This document shows positions 8,393 to 54,695 of a DNA stretch of 64,000 nt, in pieces. Positions within the stretch are counted from its first letter, which is position 1. The number at the start of each line of letters is the position of its first letter. Made by a program: the position numbers and the translations under genes. The notes below the pieces were generated by a model. The model made no database searches and had not been told where the DNA came from. It was given only the letters and a program-made list of their open reading frames with translations. Where the stretch lies: positions 3,048 through 67,047 of the IMG/VR virus record IMGVR_UViG_3300026487_000009; one strand, written 5' to 3'. The DNA is from a virus.

Positions 8393-8429
8393 CGTGGAGC
8401 CTCCTGCAGGATATGGTCTGGAGGTTATA

Positions 8430-8448
8430 AAAGATTAGTGTTTATTGC
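8430..8448 (-). promoter_or_regulatory. Probable C1 operator
   Basis: rc GCAATAAACACTAATCTTT upstream of the endolysin. Confidence 0.65.
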
Positions 8449-13545: not shown

Positions 13546-13573
13546 CAGTCCAGCGAACCTTGTGTAAGATTAT

Positions 13574-13592
13574 AAAGTTTAGTGTTTATTGC
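13574..13592 (-). promoter_or_regulatory. Probable C1 operator (consensus copy)
   Basis: rc GCAATAAACACTAAACTTT in the prt/darB divergent gap. Confidence 0.7.
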
Positions 13593-25111: not shown

Positions 25112-25119
25112 TTTCCGTA

Positions 25120-25138
25120 AAAGTTTAGTGTTTATTGT
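25120..25138 (-). promoter_or_regulatory. Probable C1 operator
   Basis: rc ACAATAAACACTAAACTTT. Confidence 0.65.
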
Positions 25139-48345: not shown

Positions 48346-49828
48346 GGTAATCAAATCGGCAGTAACAGATCCGCGCTGGCTGGATATGGTGGTGAAGTAC
48401 CGTTACGACTGGGTGACGGCCATTGAAGTGCTCTTCGGTCGCGAGCTGACCTGGCAGCAGATGCTGGTGGTCCAGGAGGCGCAGGAAACGGGTAACTGGG
48501 TATCGGTTACATCCGGGCACGGTACCGGGAAATCTGACGTCACCGGCGCCATGATCCTCTGTTTCCAGATGTTCTACCCGGGCGCCCGTACCATCATCGT
48601 GGCCAACAAAATAAAACAGGTCATGACCGGCGTTTTCAAATACATGAAAATGCACTGGGCAACAGCCTGCAAGCGCTTTCCATGGCTCGCTGAATACTTT
48701 GTACTGACAGATACCTGCTTTTACGAGATCACCAACAAAGGTGTCTGGGAAGTGGTGCCGAAGGGTTTCCGCCTGGGCAACGAAGAAGCACTAGCCGGTG
48801 AGCACGCAGAGCACCTGTGGTATATCGTCGATGAGGCCTCCGGCGTCAGCGATAAGGCATTTGGTATCATTGAGGGGGCGCTGACGCAGGAAGATAACCG
48901 GCTGATGCTGATCTCCCAGCCGACGCGTCCGAGCGGGCGCTTTTACGATTCGCATCACAGCCTGGCGAAAGGCCCGCACAACCCGAAAGGGCTGTTTACC
49001 TCGATCATGCTGAATTCTGAGGAATCGCCACTGGTCACCCTGAAGGCGATCCGGCAGTTCCTGGCAAAATACGGCGGGCGTAATAACCCGGAATATCAGA
49101 TTAAGGTGCTGGGGCGGTTCCCCAAAACCACCAGCGATTATCTACTGGGGCGAGATGAATGCGAGAGCGCCCAGAGGCGCAAGGTACTGCTCCCGAAAGG
49201 CTGGGGCTGGGTGGCCTGCTGCGACGTGGGGAACGGGCGAGACAAGTCCATATTAAGTATTTTCCGGGTGAGCGGCAGCGGCCTGACGCGGCGAGTTGTG
49301 CCTTATAAGGTATACGAAATGGATACCACGATCACGCCGACGAAGTTCGCTGACTTCATTTACGCTAAATGTGACCCTTCTGTATTCCCGAACATCACGA
49401 TAGTAGTCGATGGTGACGGCGTCGGCTCTGCAACAGCTGACAAACTCTATGAGAATTACGGGATCGACGTGCAGCGCATTCGCTGGGGCTTCCCAATGCA
49501 CAGCAGAAGCGACCGCAAGCGCTTTGTGAACCAGCGTGCCTACGCGAACATCATGGCGCAGTTCGCCATTCGCCAGGGAAGGATGCGCCTTGACCGGGAT
49601 GATAAAACGGTCGAGCAGGCATCGAAGATCCCAATCCTGCTGAATGAGCACGGGCAATGGCTGGTTATGAAGAAAGAAGTGATGCGGCAGAAGCTAAACA
49701 TCAAGTCGCCGGACCGGTGGGATACATATTGCTTTGCCATGCTGGCAAACTACGTTCCGGCGAATGAGGTTCTTAGTCAGGATGGCATGCATGAAAGGGA
49801 CGAAGCGCTGGCGCTGCTGGCGAGTTAA
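48335..49828 (+). CDS. pacB: Terminase large subunit PacB
   Basis: [19 protein letters not shown] and SPD.WD.YCFAML. Confidence 0.96.
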
Positions 49829-50661
49829 CTCCCTTCTCGCTTTGATGATGCGGTGCCTGCAACGGCATCCTTCATCATGCGCTTCTGTCGGCTCTTTCGT
49901 TCTGATGCTGCTCTTAACTGGCGTTTATTTTTTTCACGATATTCCGCCAGGCGATCGCGAACCTTTTCCACCTCTTCGACCAGATACAGCTTCGTGTCTG
50001 GCCACATCGCCGTTGGTATGCCCTCAATCATGTCATAAGGGCTGGTGGATTCGCGCTCACGCGTGGGTTTCGTAGAAAGTCTCAGCTGGTCGTTATTCAC
50101 GATAAACAACCCATGGGAAGAGACGCGCTCCAGCTCCAGCTCGGTGCTGCCCTCATAAGCGATATTGGCGATCGTATCTTTGAACCCCTCACGGCGCATA
50201 TACATCCGCGCATCGCCCGGGAAAGTTGATAGCAACTCAATTTCCTTATGCAGCTGCGCACACAGCTCATCGCATTCAGGCTTTGCCCGCGACCGGCGGA
50301 TCTTCGCCTGCATGGCCTCAATCACTTTCGATACCGGCCAGTTACGAACGGTAACCGCATCAAGCTCGTACACACGCACTCGCGTGGCACCAGCGATCAT
50401 TTTTGGATAGGGCTTAAATACCTGAGGTGGAATATGCAGATCGGGGAACTCTTCCAGCTTCTCTGCGTAATCAACCCATTTTTGAATTTTGGCGCTGTAT
50501 GTAGAATGCTCGTCCGGCTGCAACAGCACAACAGGGCGAAAAACTTCGCCGTACCGGCTTGTAATTTTATATTCAGCTCGATGAAGTGCCTCATCAAGGA
50601 ATTCCCTTCGAAAGGTCATGAATTCCAGATACAGGCGTTCCGCGAGGTTGTAGTCAGTCAT
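49825..50661 (-). CDS. c1: Primary repressor C1
   Basis: LY.EF..FR, RPVV.L, KW...A..LE..PDL.IP and WP..K.Y; convergent on pacB as in P1. Confidence 0.88.
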
Positions 50662-50716
50662 GTTTTTTCTACCCTGCATGAAGAACGGTATGTAAGTGAG
50701 CGATGACAATGTATAA

Positions 50717-50735
50717 AAAATATAGTGTTTTTTAA
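50717..50735 (-). promoter_or_regulatory. Degenerate operator upstream of c1
   Basis: rc TTAAAAAACACTATATTTT. Confidence 0.35.
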
Positions 50736-50824
50736 AGCAGTGCACGCCCTTTCAGGGGAGAAAGAGTAAAAAAAGCGCGATCGACCTCGCAGAAAAGTAA
50801 GCCGCGCCTAACTGGGGGGAGAGA

Positions 50825-51061: not shown

Positions 51062-51398
51062 CGATAAATGTTTAGTGCTTATTAAAACTGTATTGCGTCA
51101 ATTTATATCATTAGGATTGCTCTGAATAAATGTAAAAGTTGACACAATAGGCGACTATTTGACCAGTCAGTTTATAAGTGCAACAAAGTCCTCATAGATT
51201 GTGAGCTTCGTAGCAAAATCAACCCGAAAATAGCGCCGAGATACCAATTATTTAAATTAATCTCTTCGGCACTAACGGGTTAGCCCTTAAGGGATAACAA
51301 TAATGCCTTCGATTTTCATGAATTCGGTCCATAGACAGGGATTATCGCAATCGCGGTGGCTATGGCGCGTTACAAACCGATACAGCACTTATCCACAG

Positions 51399-51492: not shown

Positions 51493-51816
51493 TCAGTGAC
51501 TATTAGCGAACGTACTCTGTTCAGTTTTGTGAAGGTAAATTTCTGTCGCTTTCTCACGGCCAGCATCGGTGAGCGAGAATGCCAGTTGCAGACTCTGGTT
51601 GCGGAACTTTTTAAGGTGACCGGACATCACCAGTTTTCGGCAGGACAAATTGTAGTTGTTCCGGTGCGTGGTAAAACCCTGGGTGTTGTCATTGATCATC
51701 TTCAGCAGCCGGGCACCAGGAACTGGCCCGGTCATGCCTTTCAATTCCAGGGCGTACAAAAGGAAAAGCGTATTTTTTTGAATTTCAGAGAAACGCTGGG
51801 CGGGTTTGGTTGCCAT
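51493..51816 (-). CDS. Winged-helix protein
   Basis: QK..LF.LYA.E, L..MIN, SCRKL and LTDAGRE.A.EIY. Confidence 0.7.
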   Translation of the reverse strand: MATKPAQRFSEIQKNTLFLLYALELKGMTGPVPGARLLKMINDNTQGFTTHRNNYNLSCRKLVMSGHLKKFRNQSLQLAFSLTDAGREKATEIYLHKTEQSTFANSH

Positions 51817-52086
51817 TTTATATCCTTAATAATTGCCGCAATGATTAACGACACATTACCCCAGATGCGCGTACGTGAAAATTAGAATTTTTCGGGGGCT
51901 CTTCTACGCCAGAATTCACGTAGCGCACCAAAAAACACGAGCGTAATACGGGAAAAATTTATTACCGCCGCGCGACCGCATACAAAAAACCGCTGAAGTC
52001 CCGGCTCAACTGGCCCTGGCGCTTTCGGCATCATGATGTTTTCAGGCTGGTGGCCCGCTGTTGGGTAAAAACCGCAAAACGAGTTG

Positions 52087-52134
52087 TTGACTCACAGATC
52101 GTCAACGGTGTAGATTCAATAAACACTAAACATT
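52087..52134 (+). promoter_or_regulatory. Sigma70 promoter with overlapping operator
   Basis: TTGACT-18-TAGATT 52087-52116; TCAATAAACACTAAACATT 52116-52134. Confidence 0.75.
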
Positions 52135-52144
52135 TAGTTACAGC

Positions 52145-53362
52145 CACAACCCTTCCGAGGGTGCAACAGAAAAGCGCGTTTGGTCTGAAAAGTTAAGCGC
52201 CCTTTTCGTTGTAGCGCGGTGGCTCCTACGCTTCAGCCGGGTGACGTTTCCCGATAGCCGTCTGCGTCCACTGCAATAGTGTGGGCGCACCCGTAAGGCC
52301 ATTGGATTTTCGGTAAAGGCATTTTCACCGCCAGCGCCGAACGACAGCGTGTTGGGCATGCATGCGCCAGTGGCCTTTCGGGTGTGAGTAAAAGTTCACG
52401 GTGCAAACGTGACGCAAGACTGGCGAGATTGCTTTTTCCTCTGAGGACGCCAGCGGCCAGGTTGACCAGTCGCCTGAGTGGCCGCGCCGGGTAAGCACCG
52501 GCAACTGCAGGACATTGCGGCTTCTTTGAGAAGCGCCGGACGCGTAACCGGCTGAAATAAAAACTGAGGTGACAGCTGGAGAGACAGCACCACAACCAAA
52601 GAGCGCGGGCGTGAAAAACTGTACCTACAGGCGGCGGAATTACGGTTCCCGGCCAAGCCGCATAGCTGAGGGGATCGCTCTTTTTGATTGTGGTGAATGC
52701 ACAGGCTGATGTGCAGCGGACTTTTAATCCGTGCGGGTACTGGCACAACCAGTCCGAAAGCCGGAGATCGGCACCGGCCACCACAAGCAGTAAAGCCCAG
52801 ACGATATCTGAGTGGCTTAAAAAACAGATGGGAGCTGGTGGAAACCCAGCACACAACGGAGTGAATCATTCTTGCCTCTGGTCCGGTTTCGCGACTGGTG
52901 GGGGCGGGTAGCCACACAAGCCGCAGCGCGAAGCGGCCCGAGTGGAGTTAAGCGCGGGGAACCTTATCGGGGAAGTGAAACCCTGGGGGGATGATTCACC
53001 CCGTTGTGGAGAATTGCAGTTGAAAAGACAACCAGAAGATCAGCATCTGGCCCATAACCACCTGTCACCCACTTCACTGGGTGTCGCCGGACGAAAGTAA
53101 CCGGCAAAGCCCATTGCTATTATCACCAAAACTTCCATGAATTGCTGTGTGTAGACGTTGCCCATCCCGTGATGGGCTTTTTTTCTGAATATTTTGAGCT
53201 CTGAGCAGTAGCTCCCTGACAACGGAGCGCACAACCGAAAGCCCGGTCGCGACAAGGTTTTCGGTTGTGGTAATGCACCTAGCGGATGTGACGTTTGATG
53301 ATGTATTGAAAGAGTGGACAGACGTCGGGGCTTGCCCCAGGTGGAGGCACCACCGCCACAAC
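52145..53362 (+). ncRNA. Array of interlocking structured RNA units
   Basis: No credible ORF; repeated CACAAC/GTTGTG closing stems, each with a T-arm-like hairpin at its 3' side. Confidence 0.7.
53160..53184 (+). terminator. Rho-independent terminator/attenuator inside the RNA array
   Basis: GCCCATC-CCGT-GATGGGC plus T7. Confidence 0.75.
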
Positions 53363-53448
53363 ATAACCACAGGCACGATCGATAAACGGTGTCCTGGCGT
53401 TTAATGCCAATTCACGCAAAGGCAGACGAACTGCCAGAAGGTGAGCCA

Positions 53449-53649
53449 ATGAGTTATTCACGTTGTACCTACTGCGGCTCAACGCTGCACACCGTAGCGA
53501 ATTGCCCAAAAACATGGGGAGGTTCAGCCCGCCGTGCGAACCTGCGCTGCGGTTACTGCGGCAAGTCTGGCCACAATTCTAATGCCTGCCCGTCTAATGC
53601 AAGCAGCGGGAACCGTCGTCGTCTGAATGATGATTACTATCTCGATTAA
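53449..53649 (+). CDS. Double CCHC zinc-knuckle protein
   Basis: CTYCGSTLHTVANC and CGYCGKSGHNSNAC (CX2CX4HX4C twice); Arg-rich. Confidence 0.85.
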   Translation: MSYSRCTYCGSTLHTVANCPKTWGGSARRANLRCGYCGKSGHNSNACPSNASSGNRRRLNDDYYLD

Positions 53650-53660
53650 GGGTCATAACT

Positions 53661-53954
53661 ATGAGTGAAGCAATTCCCCAAGATGGCAGCACCGTCAAAG
53701 GCTACCGCACGTTAACACCAGGCGACATTGAGCGCATGAACCGCCTGAAGGACGTTAGTCGTCACTTTTGCAGTCTTCTCGATACCGAGCGCGAGGAGCT
53801 GATGGCTGCACGCAATGGCCCAGCACTGTTAAGCACAGAGCAGGCGCGCGAGATTGATGACGCCCTGCGCTGCCTGTCGGTCGCACGCACAAAAATGCAG
53901 GAAGCCTGTATGTGGGGCTGTCGTGCTATTGCGCGGCCTGACGCTGATTGTTAG
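53661..53954 (+). CDS. acb2: Acb2/T4 Vs.4-family cyclic-nucleotide sponge
   Basis: KGYR.L....I..MN..K and A.TK.QEA.MW.CRA.A.P. Confidence 0.8.
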   Translation: MSEAIPQDGSTVKGYRTLTPGDIERMNRLKDVSRHFCSLLDTEREELMAARNGPALLSTEQAREIDDALRCLSVARTKMQEACMWGCRAIARPDADC

Positions 53955-54003
53955 CCGGTAAGCACCCGGCACCACGCGTTTTCCAACTACCAGGGGCACT
54001 AAA

Positions 54004-54444
54004 ATGCAGCAATATGTGAGCACTAAGATCGTCAATGGCACGCCTATGACGCGTCAGGAGTACATCAATTTACGCGGTTGGACGCTGCCAGAAAACGAGA
54101 ATGGCGCAGATGAGGGCTATCTCGTCGAGTATCACGATGGTGGCCAGCCTAATACCGACAGCCACAAAGGCTATATCAGCTGGAGTCCAAAAGACGTTTT
54201 TGAGCGTGCCTCTCTCCCGCTCGGCAATATTGAAGGTCTTGCTCCGCACCACCAGCGTATGCTGGCCGAACGTGCGCAGTTATGCGATCGCATTACCAAG
54301 CTAAACGGCTTCATTGGTACGCGTCAGTTTCTGGATCTCGAACCGTTAGATCAATCCCGCTTGCAGTCGCAACTAAATGTTATGGCACATTATCGGCAGG
54401 AACTGGATGAGCGTTTATTTGCGCTGAAAAACGAACCAGCCTGA
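54004..54444 (+). CDS. Two-domain phage protein, putative sponge fusion
   Basis: N-terminal Y..TK...GYLVEY...YISWSPKDVFERA; C-terminal H.QRM..E..L..RI.KL..FI...RL..Q...M..Y...L.ERL. Confidence 0.7.
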   Translation: MQQYVSTKIVNGTPMTRQEYINLRGWTLPENENGADEGYLVEYHDGGQPNTDSHKGYISWSPKDVFERASLPLGNIEGLAPHHQRMLAERAQLCDRITKLNGFIGTRQFLDLEPLDQSRLQSQLNVMAHYRQELDERLFALKNEPA

Positions 54445-54472
54445 TCGGTAGGCGGGCACAAGTCAGCAATCA

Positions 54473-54548
54473 GGCCCCTTAACTCAGCGGTGAGAGTAAG
54501 CCCCTCATAAGGGCCGAGTCGCCGGTTCGAATCCGGCAGGGGCCACCA
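54473..54548 (+). tRNA. trnI: tRNA-Ile2 (CAT, lysidine type)
   Basis: GGCCCCT/AGGGGCC acceptor, CTCATAA loop, GGTTCGAATCC, encoded CCA; ileX-like. Confidence 0.9.
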
Positions 54549-54577
54549 TTTCACGTATGTTTTCAACGCCTATATTT

Positions 54578-54604
54578 AAGGCCACCTTCGCCGGTGGCCT
54601 TTTT
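54578..54604 (+). terminator. Rho-independent terminator
   Basis: AAGGCCACC-TTCGCC-GGTGGCCTT plus T run. Confidence 0.75.
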
Positions 54605-54621
54605 GTTATCTCAAATAGATA

Positions 54622-54640
54622 ATGACAAACACTAAATATT
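54622..54640 (+). promoter_or_regulatory. Probable C1 operator
   Basis: ATGACAAACACTAAATATT upstream of the HTH-cre unit. Confidence 0.55.
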
Positions 54641-54695
54641 TACTTATTATTTGCCGGGTGTTATCCAAAATAGATAACCCCGCAAGGAGAGCTGA

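Follow-up and report, generated by a model that had tools for sequence, protein, structure and literature searches.

A modular array of STnc100/PasD-type structured RNAs predicted in a divergent P1-like phage-plasmid

Background

What is encoded by about 1.2 kb of viral DNA in which the words CACAAC and GTTGTG keep recurring and no credible gene is seen? The locus belongs to a 64,000-nucleotide stretch (the window, analysed here as a whole) from a divergent P1-like phage-plasmid recovered from a phyllosphere metagenome; the phage-plasmid L258 is nearly the same. An initial annotation, made from the letters alone, described it as one array of interlocking, tRNA-shaped RNA units behind an operator-controlled promoter. 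We followed up this description with covariance models, folding and comparison with related loci. The explanation that we favour, and consider rather probable, is that the locus is a repressor-controlled array of STnc100/PasD-type RNAs that yields small RNAs. The features are listed in Table 1.

Table 1. Features of the RNA locus and of the adjoining downstream genes (window coordinates)
Feature	Position	Strand	Description
Sigma-70-type promoter-like site	52087-52116	+	TTGACT, 18-nt spacer, TAGATT; score 9/12
18-bp operator-like motif	52118-52135	+	Perfect copy of AATAAACACTAAACWTTT; abuts the -10, spans the likely transcription start (about 52123)
Leader	52149-52212	+	Short hairpin 52149-52162, then long hairpin 52163-52212 of the type CAAC-AGAAAAGCGC / GCGCCCUUUUCGUUG
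Large unit	52208-52596	+	Closed by GUUGU/ACAAC; short hairpin and CACCACAACCA at the end
Hairpin module A	52588-52696	+	Arms CACCACAAC-CAAAGAGCG and CGCUCUUUUUG-AUUGUGGUG
Core 1	52687-52787	+	Type-1 cloverleaf of the STnc100 superfamily; 9-bp closing stem
Module B	52788-52857	+	Two hairpins around the conserved single strand AAAAACAGAUGGGAG; ends in CACACAAC
Hairpin module C	52852-53008	+	157-nt rod closed by CACAAC/GUUGUG
Mini-core (core 2)	53003-53058	+	Closing stem GUUGUGG/CCAUAAC; T-like hairpin with family loop AGAUCAGCA; no payload
RprA-like sRNA module	53085-53187	+	Seed GAAUUGCUGUGUGUAG (53135-53150), terminator stem 53160-53177, U tract
Hairpin module D	53227-53271	+	CACAACCGAAAGCC / GGUUUUCGGUUGUG; interlocks with core 3
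Core 3	53264-53362	+	Type-2 core of the STnc100 kind; last hairpin GGUGG-AGGCA-CCACC; lies in the leader of the CCHC gene
CCHC zinc-knuckle ORF	53389-53649	+	zf-CCHC match weak, under its cut-off
Acb2/Tad1-hairpin protein and crAss001_48-like protein	53661-53954; 54004-54444	+	Pfam
tRNA-Met	54473-54548	+	Rfam, ARAGORN
Terminator	54578-54601	+	Terminator prediction

Results and discussion

Coding potential, strand and the CACAAC/GUUGUG grammar

Neither Pfam nor PHROG gave a match for any ORF in 52100-53390, including minus-strand frames of 207, 173 and 100 aa, in agreement with the absence of a credible ORF noted at the outset. These long minus-strand frames might be taken for a decayed or unrecognised protein gene. 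However, they begin with TTG or GTG, and the DNA is a mosaic of 60-170-nt pieces that are ordered otherwise in other phages, which is incompatible with one conserved reading frame; we find such a gene hardly credible. The repeating grammar was found as described, with six copies of CACAAC in the 1.3 kb from 52100 to 53400 against 0.24 per kb in the remaining window. The terminal hexamers of the hairpins and cores also overlap in the window sequence, as had been claimed, and at least 20 of 56 related loci are alike, with compensatory changes in the arms.

Because G.U pairs are conserved, model scores are strand-specific and an intrinsic terminator lies on the + strand, the claim of a non-coding structured RNA array is upheld for that strand: the locus appears to be a non-coding RNA locus of the phage-plasmid, read on the + strand, and a chain of separately conserved RNA modules. 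Four of its members are long hairpins with CACAAC/GUUGUG as closing pairs, and three are cloverleaf cores assigned to the STnc100/PasD superfamily; the others are module B, the large unit and a copy of the 3' half of RprA with its terminator. Two of the modules seem, from their letters, to copy host RNAs, namely the anticodon arm of tRNA-Lys and the functional end of the regulator RprA. The single 1.2-kb array of the initial annotation is indeed a chain of structured RNA modules, but the terminator at 53160-53184 divides it into two.

The same grammar recurs, reshuffled, in P1-like, N4-like, DS8 and lambdoid phages, often beside tRNA genes (in D6, DS8, Acinetobacter and N4-like phages). The recurrent elements are the long hairpin closed by CACAAC/GUUGUG, the cloverleaf core with two kissing loops, and module B; in unrelated phages the modules are always intergenic and in the orientation of their neighbours. 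One exact 14-mer from this family is shared by more than 120 viral contigs. Single modules of the locus were found in other samples, in four runs listed as possible RNA that consist of contigs, probably DNA; the search of sequencing runs gave no RNA run containing this DNA. The tRNA cluster of phage T4 has stable non-tRNA RNAs as well (species 1 and 2, rnaC/rnaD). Species 1 and 2, structured small RNAs co-transcribed with phage tRNA genes, resemble the family modules by their description.

Module order differs among the window, an Enterobacter plasmid, D6, DS8 and an N4-like phage, and each junction falls at CACAAC or GUUGUG. Such an arrangement would be expected if these ends were short recombination joints for module swapping and the hairpins mattered as DNA. 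Yet on the opposite strand the conserved G.U pairs would turn into C.A mismatches, the model scores depend on the strand, and family members are known transcripts; shuffling at the ends fits an RNA array too and does not replace it. We therefore judge a purely DNA-level role to be very improbable.

Promoter, operator and terminator

The promoter-like site ahead of the leader is a weak match, since 2.0 sites with its score of 9/12 are expected per 3 kb. An inverted repeat, GTTGAC(N9)GTCAAC, overlaps its -35, and the 18-bp operator-like motif beside its -10 has 15 copies in the window, against 0.09 expected. Further copies are at 51066-51083 (-) and 54624-54641 (+), the latter on a promoter-like site ahead of a cre-like gene. 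We take this dispersed pattern to resemble the asymmetric, dispersed C1 operators of P1. The product of a c1-like gene at 49825-50745 would be the candidate repressor. The operator-controlled promoter of the initial annotation is borne out by the operator copy, with the promoter match itself remaining weak (9/12). Since a putative operator lies on the promoter, early, repressor-controlled expression of the locus is a fair inference. When the repressor is lifted, by infection or induction, the locus would yield stable small RNAs.

The intrinsic terminator at 53160-53184 on the + strand consists of the stem 53160-53177 and a U tract. The first transcription unit would extend to it (about 53184), and the last hairpin and core would form the leader of an anti-defence gene set. 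No promoter-like site was found 3' of this terminator; read-through, or a role in cis, is therefore also possible for that part.

Leader, large unit and hairpin modules

Of the long hairpins named by the initial annotation, those in 52145-52215, 52846-53030 and 53225-53285 fold well (z -4.4, -2.9 and -2.9, respectively). The region 52586-52710, around module A, does form its long outer stem, although as a whole it folds with a z of just -0.95. The fold of the leader region (52145-52215) has -27.4 kcal/mol, and no homologue of the leader was seen among the related loci compared. That of module D (53225-53285) has -25.6 kcal/mol.

The large unit folds with z -2.3, and its part 52397-52504 shows 85% identity to an Enterobacter P1-like plasmid (L002, 5001-5115). 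Metagenome contigs of other samples, probably DNA, span 52159-52558. Rfam gave no match to the large unit at E up to 10; a frame resembling a tmRNA tag (GCA AAC GUG ...) was dropped, there being no tmRNA match.

The 3' arm of module A overlaps the 5' strand of core 1. Its inner part is 85% identical to Acinetobacter phages, in which it lies 3' of tRNA-Arg and the outer stem is rebuilt from other complementary sequence (GUAGUUAAAU/AUUUAACUAC). A hammerhead-like reading of this hairpin was abandoned: its core motifs do not follow the required order, and Rfam gave no match. Intergenic regions of Klebsiella, Shigella DS8 and N4-like phages match module B at 84-95% identity, and one pair in each of its hairpins occurs as three pair types.

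For module C, none of 200 shuffles folded as well as 52846-53030. Among its 57 predicted pairs five are compensatory, and many G.U pairs are kept in all three sequences compared, which identifies the + strand as the RNA. Module C has homologues in the Enterobacter plasmid L002 and locus L094. G.U pairs are likewise conserved in the consensus alignment of core 1.

The cores and the STnc100/PasD superfamily

Core 1 combines a D-like hairpin with an anticodon arm at 52716-52732; it also has a long extra arm, and its T-like hairpin carries a loop of 9 nt. We searched with two covariance models of our own: R1, run with filters off, whose training set contained core 1, and R2, from which the window sequence was excluded. 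R1 gave 86.5 bits for core 1 (a training sequence) on the + strand against 9.9 on the - strand, 16.6 bits for the mini-core (E 9e-4) and 12.2 bits for core 3; R2 gave 22.7 bits for core 3 (E 1e-4) and 18.5 bits for core 1. The models land on 52687-52787, 53003-53058 and 53264-53362, in accord with the core units of the initial annotation, and the scores of cores 2 and 3 are modest (12-23 bits). The mini-core has homologues in phage D6 and the Enterobacter plasmid, and core 3 shows 76% identity to sequence of phage D6 and of some 90 P1-like plasmids.

The Rfam STnc100 model (RF02076) gave no match in 51800-53700 at E up to 10, its gathering score being 47 bits; related elements elsewhere score 29-43 bits on it. 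With the window units below RF02076, family membership rests on our intermediate models. R1 also matches an E. coli prophage element (L010, 8040-8163) that scores 43 bits on Rfam STnc100 (E 4e-8), and RF02076 and R1/R2 match the same places in phage D6 and in two further loci (L112 and L114). The core fold of STnc100 is present in the three cores matched by R1/R2: a closing stem UGGUG/CACCA, which may extend to (G)UGGUG/CACCA(C), a first hairpin separated from it by a short AAU linker, and a last hairpin abutting the closing strand. The AGGCA loop of the Rfam consensus occurs in core 3.

On these models the cores are best assigned to the STnc100/PasD superfamily, and the units are then not new. 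The suggestion that single units might match a known Rfam motif was right in so far as they are related to STnc100, and wrong as to sRNA-Xcc1, which an Rfam scan at E up to 10 does not list. Over the whole region the same scan gave no match to C4, tRNA, tmRNA, Y RNA or ribozyme models, and at gathering thresholds tRNA-Met alone was returned. The hairpins that had been called T-arm-like have loops of 9 or 5 nt and not the 7-nt T-loop.

The kissing loops proposed for core 1 are complementary and covary: GCUGA/UCAGC becomes GUCGA/UCGAC in phage DS8 and GCGA/UCGC in locus L102. Covariation of the stems, which had been suggested as a check, was seen as compensatory changes in core hairpin 1, the kissing loops, the hairpin arms and module B, in a family sample seeded with an exact 14-mer, which hides covariation of the 5' strand. 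Each core would thus form a rigid chassis, with the closing stem stacked on the last hairpin and the first and last loops kissing, on which a variable insert is displayed.

The relationship to STnc100 (EcOnc27/sRNA103 of EHEC, with PasD1/PasD2 of EPEC as structural relatives) lies in this multi-helix core, and also in the variable middle, the phage or prophage location and the occurrence as dyads or arrays. STnc100 copies are transcribed, one having been detected by Northern blot in EHEC (PMC5331693); EcOnc27/sRNA103 is Hfq-bound (PMC7873438, PMC12711010), and PasD is Hfq-dependent and ligated to its targets in RIL-seq (PMC8550237; bioRxiv 10.64898/2026.05.13.724894). Since dyads of such sRNAs are already published (PMC7873438), the tandem layout, which the initial annotation thought undescribed, is so only in part. 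RNAs of the STnc100/PasD type adjoin Shiga-toxin genes. The window differs from the lambdoid-prophage members in that its element is a P1-like phage-plasmid, and in that cores 1 and 3 share one promoter with other module types. Many STnc100 members have an RprA-like seed and a terminator after the core. In this locus the mini-core alone has a terminator behind it, at a distance of about 100 nt (53160-53184); cores 1 and 3 lack one. Furthermore, the subtype of core 1 (loops GGCUGA and AGAUCRGCA) escapes RF02076.

Another point of comparison is offered by the P1 C4 and P4 CI antisense RNAs (RF01695), which are small phage RNAs of cloverleaf-like shape, released from longer early transcripts in P1-type phages. 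In contrast to C4, the locus has neither a match to the C4 model (E up to 10) nor an adjacent target of the icd/ant type.

The RprA-like cassette

Rfam RprA (RF00034) scores 46.9 bits on the cassette (E 3e-4), short of the gathering score of 70, and 63.4 bits on the cassette of the Enterobacter plasmid. Against chromosomal rprA, which matches the cassette in 5424 of 5426 E. coli genomes, the best identity is 84.7% over 57 nt (53139-53195) and most matches have 87.5% over 46 nt (53139-53184). The 16-nt seed GAAUUGCUGUGUGUAG is identical to the Rfam RprA consensus. The likeness is confined to the 3' half: the cassette shares with processed RprA the seed, the terminator hairpin GCCCAUC...GAUGGGC and the U tract, but differs in its unrelated 5' half and in being carried by a phage, and is predicted to close a 1-kb structured transcript.

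Such a cassette occurs in at least 118 viral contigs. In two related loci (L181 and L184) the mini-core stands immediately 5' of it, and in other relatives a type-2 core, of the kind of core 3, is fused directly to it. The 3'-terminal product would comprise the mini-core, the RprA-like seed and the terminator, the usual build of STnc100-type sRNAs, and by analogy would most likely be an Hfq-dependent base-pairing RNA against host targets of the RprA type; RprA targets include rpoS and csgD. The terminator and U tail expected of an Hfq sRNA are found in this one module of the locus.

Core 1 and tRNA-Lys(UUU)

Of the 17 nt in the arm of core 1 at 52716-52732, 13 agree with E. coli lysT. Both have the loop CUUUUAA, the pairs A31-U39 and G30-C40 and the wobble G27.U43, and the two remaining stem differences are compensatory; the insert may be a copy of the tRNA-Lys(UUU) anticodon arm carried on the chassis. 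When the family was scored for an anticodon arm (5 bp, 7-nt loop, U33, a purine at 37, in the canonical place), core 1 had all of these features and 55 of 59 other members failed.

One possible explanation, which we hold to be conceivable though unlikely, is that core 1 is a look-alike of tRNA-Lys(UUU) that shields the host lysine tRNA from anti-phage nucleases of the anticodon arm (PARIS AriB, PrrC, RloC). It would be a decoy or a poor substrate, or, less likely, a nuclease-resistant surrogate tRNA, and the whole locus would belong to the anti-defence operon downstream. Besides the likeness to lysT, the arm sits between D-like and T-like hairpins as in a tRNA, and it is invariant in the nine other viral contigs in which the core 1 unit recurs, despite differing flanks, the extra arm varying with changes that are partly compensated. 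It retains the UAAU element required by AriB, and it has C41; C41 in E. coli tRNA-Lys strongly inhibits cleavage by AriB, and the resistant tRNA-Lys of T5 has it too (PMC12409363, PMC11464382). The locus is operator-controlled, hence early, and lies just 5' of the genes for an Acb2/Tad1-type sponge and a crAss001_48-like protein.

Several features speak against such mimicry. The Rfam tRNA model and ARAGORN are blind to core 1; standard ARAGORN found no tRNA at the units, and at 60% thresholds it gave scattered, inconsistent calls, none of them tRNA-Lys at core 1. The 9-bp closing stem is followed by GCAG, with no CCA in the window copy, and the T-like loop has 9 nt (AGAUCGGCA). The 7-bp acceptor with discriminator and CCA, the 7-nt T-loop and G18 G19 of a tRNA are absent, and the loops pair by Watson-Crick kissing in place of the tRNA-type elbow. 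Four related copies do read NCCA in a 7-bp register, but because their flanks are homologous they count as one event at most. Position 16 of the D-loop differs from the U read by AriB, and in the nearest variant (L027) the loop is altered to CUAUUAA and the 31-39 pair is broken. A 5-bp/7-nt hairpin occurs at that place in only four of the 59 other members, none of them anticodon-like; mimicry cannot, then, account for the whole family, and we rejected the idea that all cores are anticodon mimics.

The tRNA-Lys(UUU) of T5, which neutralises PARIS (PMC11464382, PMC12409363), is likewise phage-borne, with the same anticodon loop and C41 beside the AriB cut site. However, it is a canonical, chargeable tRNA and additionally has U39A, whereas core 1 escapes recognition as a tRNA, retains U39 and has no CCA here. 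Of the earlier wording, "tRNA-shaped" holds in the sense of a cloverleaf shape, and the guess of tRNA decoys has specific but indirect support for one unit. The broader proposal, that STnc100-type cores are tRNA-derived chassis and core 1 an early tRNA-Lys(UUU) mimic absorbing or resisting AriB, PrrC and RloC, is in our opinion doubtful.

The downstream genes and a possible role in cis

A co-oriented gene block (53389-54601, +) follows the locus, with Pfam matches to PF24729 (2e-17) and PF21825 (2e-14). The modules could work in cis on the RNA that contains them, through antitermination like that of HK022 put, attenuation, or RNase processing and stability, and would then set the level of the downstream anti-defence genes, tRNA and recombinase. 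The locus begins at an early promoter, the terminator at 53160-53184 must be passed with no promoter-like site beyond it, relatives lie in the early-left leaders of lambdoid prophages, and mutually exclusive pairings would suit a switch. On the other hand, blastn-short against the HK022 immunity region (putL, putR) returned only chance words, which is a weak test. The same modules are also found in late operons, 3' of stx2, and within the tRNA clusters of virulent phages (PMC12370729), locations that do not suit a leader, and members of the family build up as separate RNAs bound to Hfq (PMC7873438, PMC8550237). We consider a cis-acting leader decidedly unlikely, and prefer an array that yields small RNAs.

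Conclusions

The RNA family itself is already known; specific to this window are the operator-abutted promoter, the cassette of the RprA 3' half and the tRNA-Lys arm. On the evidence of our models the STnc100/PasD family extends to P1-type phage-plasmids, and its fixed modular grammar is also present inside the tRNA clusters of virulent phages. Of 5426 complete E. coli genomes, 2779 (about half) carry one subtype. The cores are built in a tRNA-like manner, with a Watson-Crick loop-loop clamp replacing the D/T elbow, and the variable insert can be part of a host RNA: in this locus an anticodon arm of the tRNA-Lys type stands together with RprA's active end. If neither a rescue from defence nor an effect on the RprA regulon holds, the locus is an elaborate but ordinary member of a known family. 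Either effect, if real, could give this orphan family a mechanism, and if the tRNA-Lys mimicry is true, an RNA decoy against host defence would be the first concrete function for a subfamily of these widespread phage RNAs.

Non-coding stretch and its folds

No family-supported ORF was found in 52100-53390, and minus-strand ORFs of 207, 173 and 100 aa gave zero matches in Pfam and PHROG searches, in agreement with the initial annotation, which saw no credible ORF here. Its repeat grammar built on CACAAC/GTTGTG was borne out as well (CACAAC six times in the stretch versus 0.24 per kb elsewhere in the window), predicted folds agree with its four long hairpins, and its tRNA-shaped unit at 52688 folds as a clean cloverleaf of a closing stem and four hairpins (52684-52790; z -3.0, 0/200 shuffles equally good). 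The description is accurate in nearly every detail and the finding is real; an intrinsic terminator, which it did not stress, splits the ORF-free stretch. The large unit (390 nt) is without an Rfam match, and a small number of metagenome contigs and an Enterobacter plasmid are its only relatives. One frame in it starts with GCA AAC, as tmRNA tags do, without any other tmRNA feature.

Features of the RNA array, copies of the 18-bp motif, and cores of phage D6
Feature	Sequence	Position	Strand	Remark
Promoter match	window	52087-52116		sigma-70, 9/12
Large unit	window	52208-52596
Hairpin A	window	52588-52696
Core 1	window	52687-52787		R1 match
Module B	window	52788-52857
Hairpin C	window	52852-53008
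Core 2 (mini-core)	window	53003-53058		R1 match
Terminator	window	53160-53184		intrinsic
Hairpin D	window	53227-53271
Core 3 (type-2)	window	53264-53362		R1 match
AATAAACACTAAACWTTT, perfect	window	52118-52135	+	directly 3' of -10
AATAAACACTAAACWTTT	window	51066-51083	-	ahead of minus-strand gene
AATAAACACTAAACWTTT	window	54624-54641	+	on promoter-like site preceding cre-like gene
AATAAACACTAAACWTTT	window	8429-8446, 13573-13590, 25119-25136	-	examples among 15 sites
D6 cores	L001	4001-4100, 5039-5096, 5272-5417, 5616-5740, 6796-6910

Relationship to STnc100

By blastn, the stretch is a mosaic of 60-170-nt pieces, each recurring in unrelated phages and phage-plasmids (Acinetobacter and Klebsiella phages, Shigella phage DS8, N4-like Escherichia phages, phage D6 and about 90 P1-like plasmids), always intergenic, on the strand of their neighbours and often adjoining tRNA genes. 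The exact 14-mer GTTGTGGTGAATGC from the cloverleaf 5' end, used as a query, retrieved more than 120 viral contigs; in most of these, conserved 5' and 3' portions (the latter GCCGGAGAUCAGCACCGGC-CACCACAAC) enclose 20-150 nt of hypervariable sequence. A subtype located upstream of yfdP in 2779 of 5426 complete E. coli genomes is a prophage element; with 43 bits (E 4e-8) against Rfam STnc100 (RF02076), it narrowly misses the gathering score of 47.

Our covariance model R1, built from 23 type-1 units including core 1, matches this element (32.7 bits), four places in phage D6 and, with filters off, exactly the three cores of the window. R2, built from ten STnc100-type cores with the window sequence excluded, detects core 3 at 22.7 bits (E 1e-4) and core 1 at 18.5 bits. 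RF02076 and R1/R2 agree in location on D6 and on loci L112 and L114. These matches and this coincidence argue, at the level of covariance models, that the window cores are members of the STnc100 superfamily. The suggestion that single units match a known Rfam motif thus holds for the superfamily, but in the Rfam scan RF02076 itself does not reach the window cores.

STnc100 copies of EHEC are transcribed, one being confirmed by Northern blot (PMC5331693), and the one that follows stx2B is EcOnc27/sRNA103, which binds Hfq (PMC7873438, PMC12711010, PMC12370729). PasD1 and PasD2 of EPEC prophages, Hfq-dependent RIL-seq sRNAs of unknown function, are structural relatives of STnc100 with other seeds (PMC8550237; bioRxiv 10.64898/2026.05.13.724894). 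In phage D6 (L001 3568-7000) and the Enterobacter plasmid (L002 4547-6628), 2-3 kb between pmgS and tciA are unannotated; this interval of P1-like phages consists of tRNA genes interleaved with STnc100-type cores.

Loop clamp and hairpin interlock

In the core, a 3-nt linker leads from the 9-bp closing stem (GUUGUGGUG/CACCACAAC) to hairpin 1, and the variable insert is followed by a last hairpin predicted to stack on that stem. Covariation is seen in hairpin 1 (GCGCA/UGCGC, GCACA/UGUGC, GCGUA/UACGU). Its loop GGCUGA is complementary to the last-hairpin loop UCAGC, and the two change together (GUCGA/UCGAC in DS8, GCGA/UCGC in locus L102), as fits the proposal that the loops of unit 52688 could kiss. 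The core has tRNA topology, a predicted Watson-Crick clamp replacing the D-loop/T-loop elbow.

In at least 20 of 56 loci, CACAAC lies 75-160 nt upstream of the core together with an arm that can pair with the 12 nt preceding GUUGUG; these arms show many compensatory variants, and in the Acinetobacter phage a different sequence re-forms the outer stem. The long hairpins are thus a feature of the family. Of the 57 pairs predicted for hairpin C, 5 are compensatory, and many G.U pairs are conserved; in module B two hairpins, each with one pair showing three pair types, flank an invariant single strand. Each hairpin ends in the six bases with which the closing stem of the next core begins, the shared hexamers of the initial annotation. 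Comparisons of the hairpin arms, module B and hairpin C indicate that this interlock is general in the family, as predicted alternative pairings. The evidence for the family-wide hairpin-core grammar and the loop clamp is new here.

Core 1 and tRNA-Lys(UUU)

Core 1 aligns arm by arm with E. coli lysT: the D-like stem is GCAC/GUGC versus GCUC/GAGC, loop lengths are equal, and 13 of 17 anticodon-arm positions are identical, including the entire loop CUUUUAA, A31-U39, G30-C40 and the G27.U43 wobble, while the remaining two pairs are changed on both sides. In nine further viral contigs the anticodon arm is invariant between different flanks, whereas changes in the extra arm are partly compensated; lambdoid examples lie in the early-left leader, immediately past the CI gene. 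This apparent tRNA-Lys anticodon arm is new here. PARIS AriB cuts tRNA-Lys(UUU) between C40 and A41 and requires a UAAU element; A41C, present in the resistant T5 tRNA-Lys, strongly inhibits cleavage (PMC12409363). Core 1 retains the UAAU of the substrate and has C41, as in the T5 tRNA.

These features, together with an Acb2/Tad1-hairpin gene and a crAss001_48-like gene downstream of the array, would suit a tRNA-Lys decoy. However, neither ARAGORN, even with relaxed thresholds, nor the Rfam tRNA model accepts core 1, its stem and loop sizes are off for tRNA, the window copy lacks CCA, the nearest variant has a changed anticodon loop, and other family members have no such arm. We therefore regard a decoy as unlikely and keep it as a rival to the STnc100-type reading; the unit is tRNA-shaped in its cloverleaf and its lysT match, but no tRNA to the detectors.

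In L102 (191-345), the variable insert of a type-1 core contains a canonical T-arm sequence, GGGG-TTCGAAT-CCCC, a second hint that inserts can be tRNA pieces. DS8 (L006 2180-2230) and N4-like phage 24-32N (L008 2195-2245) have in common a conserved non-coding module with a tmRNA-style tag frame, A-N-D-D-V-V-L-M-A-A, that ends in two stops; at L008 2114-2236 the Rfam tmRNA_permuted model gives 31 bits.

RprA-like 3' end

The segment 53085-53187 scores 46.9 bits on Rfam RprA. In 5424 of 5426 E. coli genomes, chromosomal rprA aligns with the 3' part of this segment, in most cases with 46 nt at 87.5% identity and in the best case with 57 nt at 84.7%. At least 118 viral contigs contain the pattern ATTGCTGTGTGTAGNCNTTGCCC, which lies downstream of a type-2 core, a mini-core like core 2 (L181, L184) or a coding-gene end. 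A type-2 core of the Enterobacter P1-like plasmid directly continues into an RprA-like module (63.4 bits), and a wastewater contig has the homologues of 53338-53365 and 53139-53166 fused in this order. In view of such joins, 53003-53187 can be read as one putative STnc100-style sRNA gene, composed of mini-core, 80-nt insert, seed and terminator; the modules 5' of it would share its primary transcript. Among loci L131-L246 (e.g. L156 3499, L160 2844, L135 3277), many RprA-like seed/terminator cassettes come directly after a coding-gene stop codon, with a C-rich CCCCUGAAUCAUCC stretch intervening, which is how a 3'-UTR-derived sRNA is built.

Putative operators and the phage-plasmid

The 64-kb window belongs to an IMG/VR viral contig of 72.7 kb, and the sequencing runs containing its DNA are phyllosphere metagenomes. 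Its gene order is P1-like: a partition gene and pacA-/pacB-like terminase genes come first, the c1 position is taken by a minus-strand gene of 306 aa, and the ORF-free stretch is then followed by small genes, tRNA-Met and a Cre-like recombinase. Nucleotide identity of only about 66% in pacB to known P1-like plasmids marks it as a divergent relative. Locus L258 (IMGVR_UViG_3300011916_000001), with hairpin A, core 1, module B and tRNA-Met arranged as in the window, is probably a close relative from another sample. Directly 3' of the array, ORF 53389-53649 encodes two zinc knuckles of the form CX2CX4HX4C (its Pfam matches, zf-CCHC and Lin-28-type, are under cut-off), and its product is a candidate RNA chaperone for the adjoining RNAs. 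Retroviral nucleocapsids with the same CCHC motif anneal tRNA-Lys3, which may be mere coincidence.

A search for repeats of the promoter surroundings found the 18-bp motif AATAAACACTAAACWTTT, with 15 copies on both strands of the window versus 0.09 expected. The P1 C1 repressor acts through dispersed, asymmetric operators; the set probably represents the operators of the phage's C1-like repressor, marking repressor-controlled promoters. Given the dispersed copies and this precedent, it is reasonable to infer that the RNA locus is controlled by a putative operator and hence early. The operator-controlled promoter first proposed gains the motif copy after -10, although the promoter match itself is modest. 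This operator context is new here.

The array, whose function we infer, has a tandem interlocked layout that looked undescribed in the initial annotation. Most of it belongs to a kind of element already known, phage sRNAs of the STnc100/PasD type with an RprA-like cassette, here set out at unusual length behind a single promoter and in a host element new for them.
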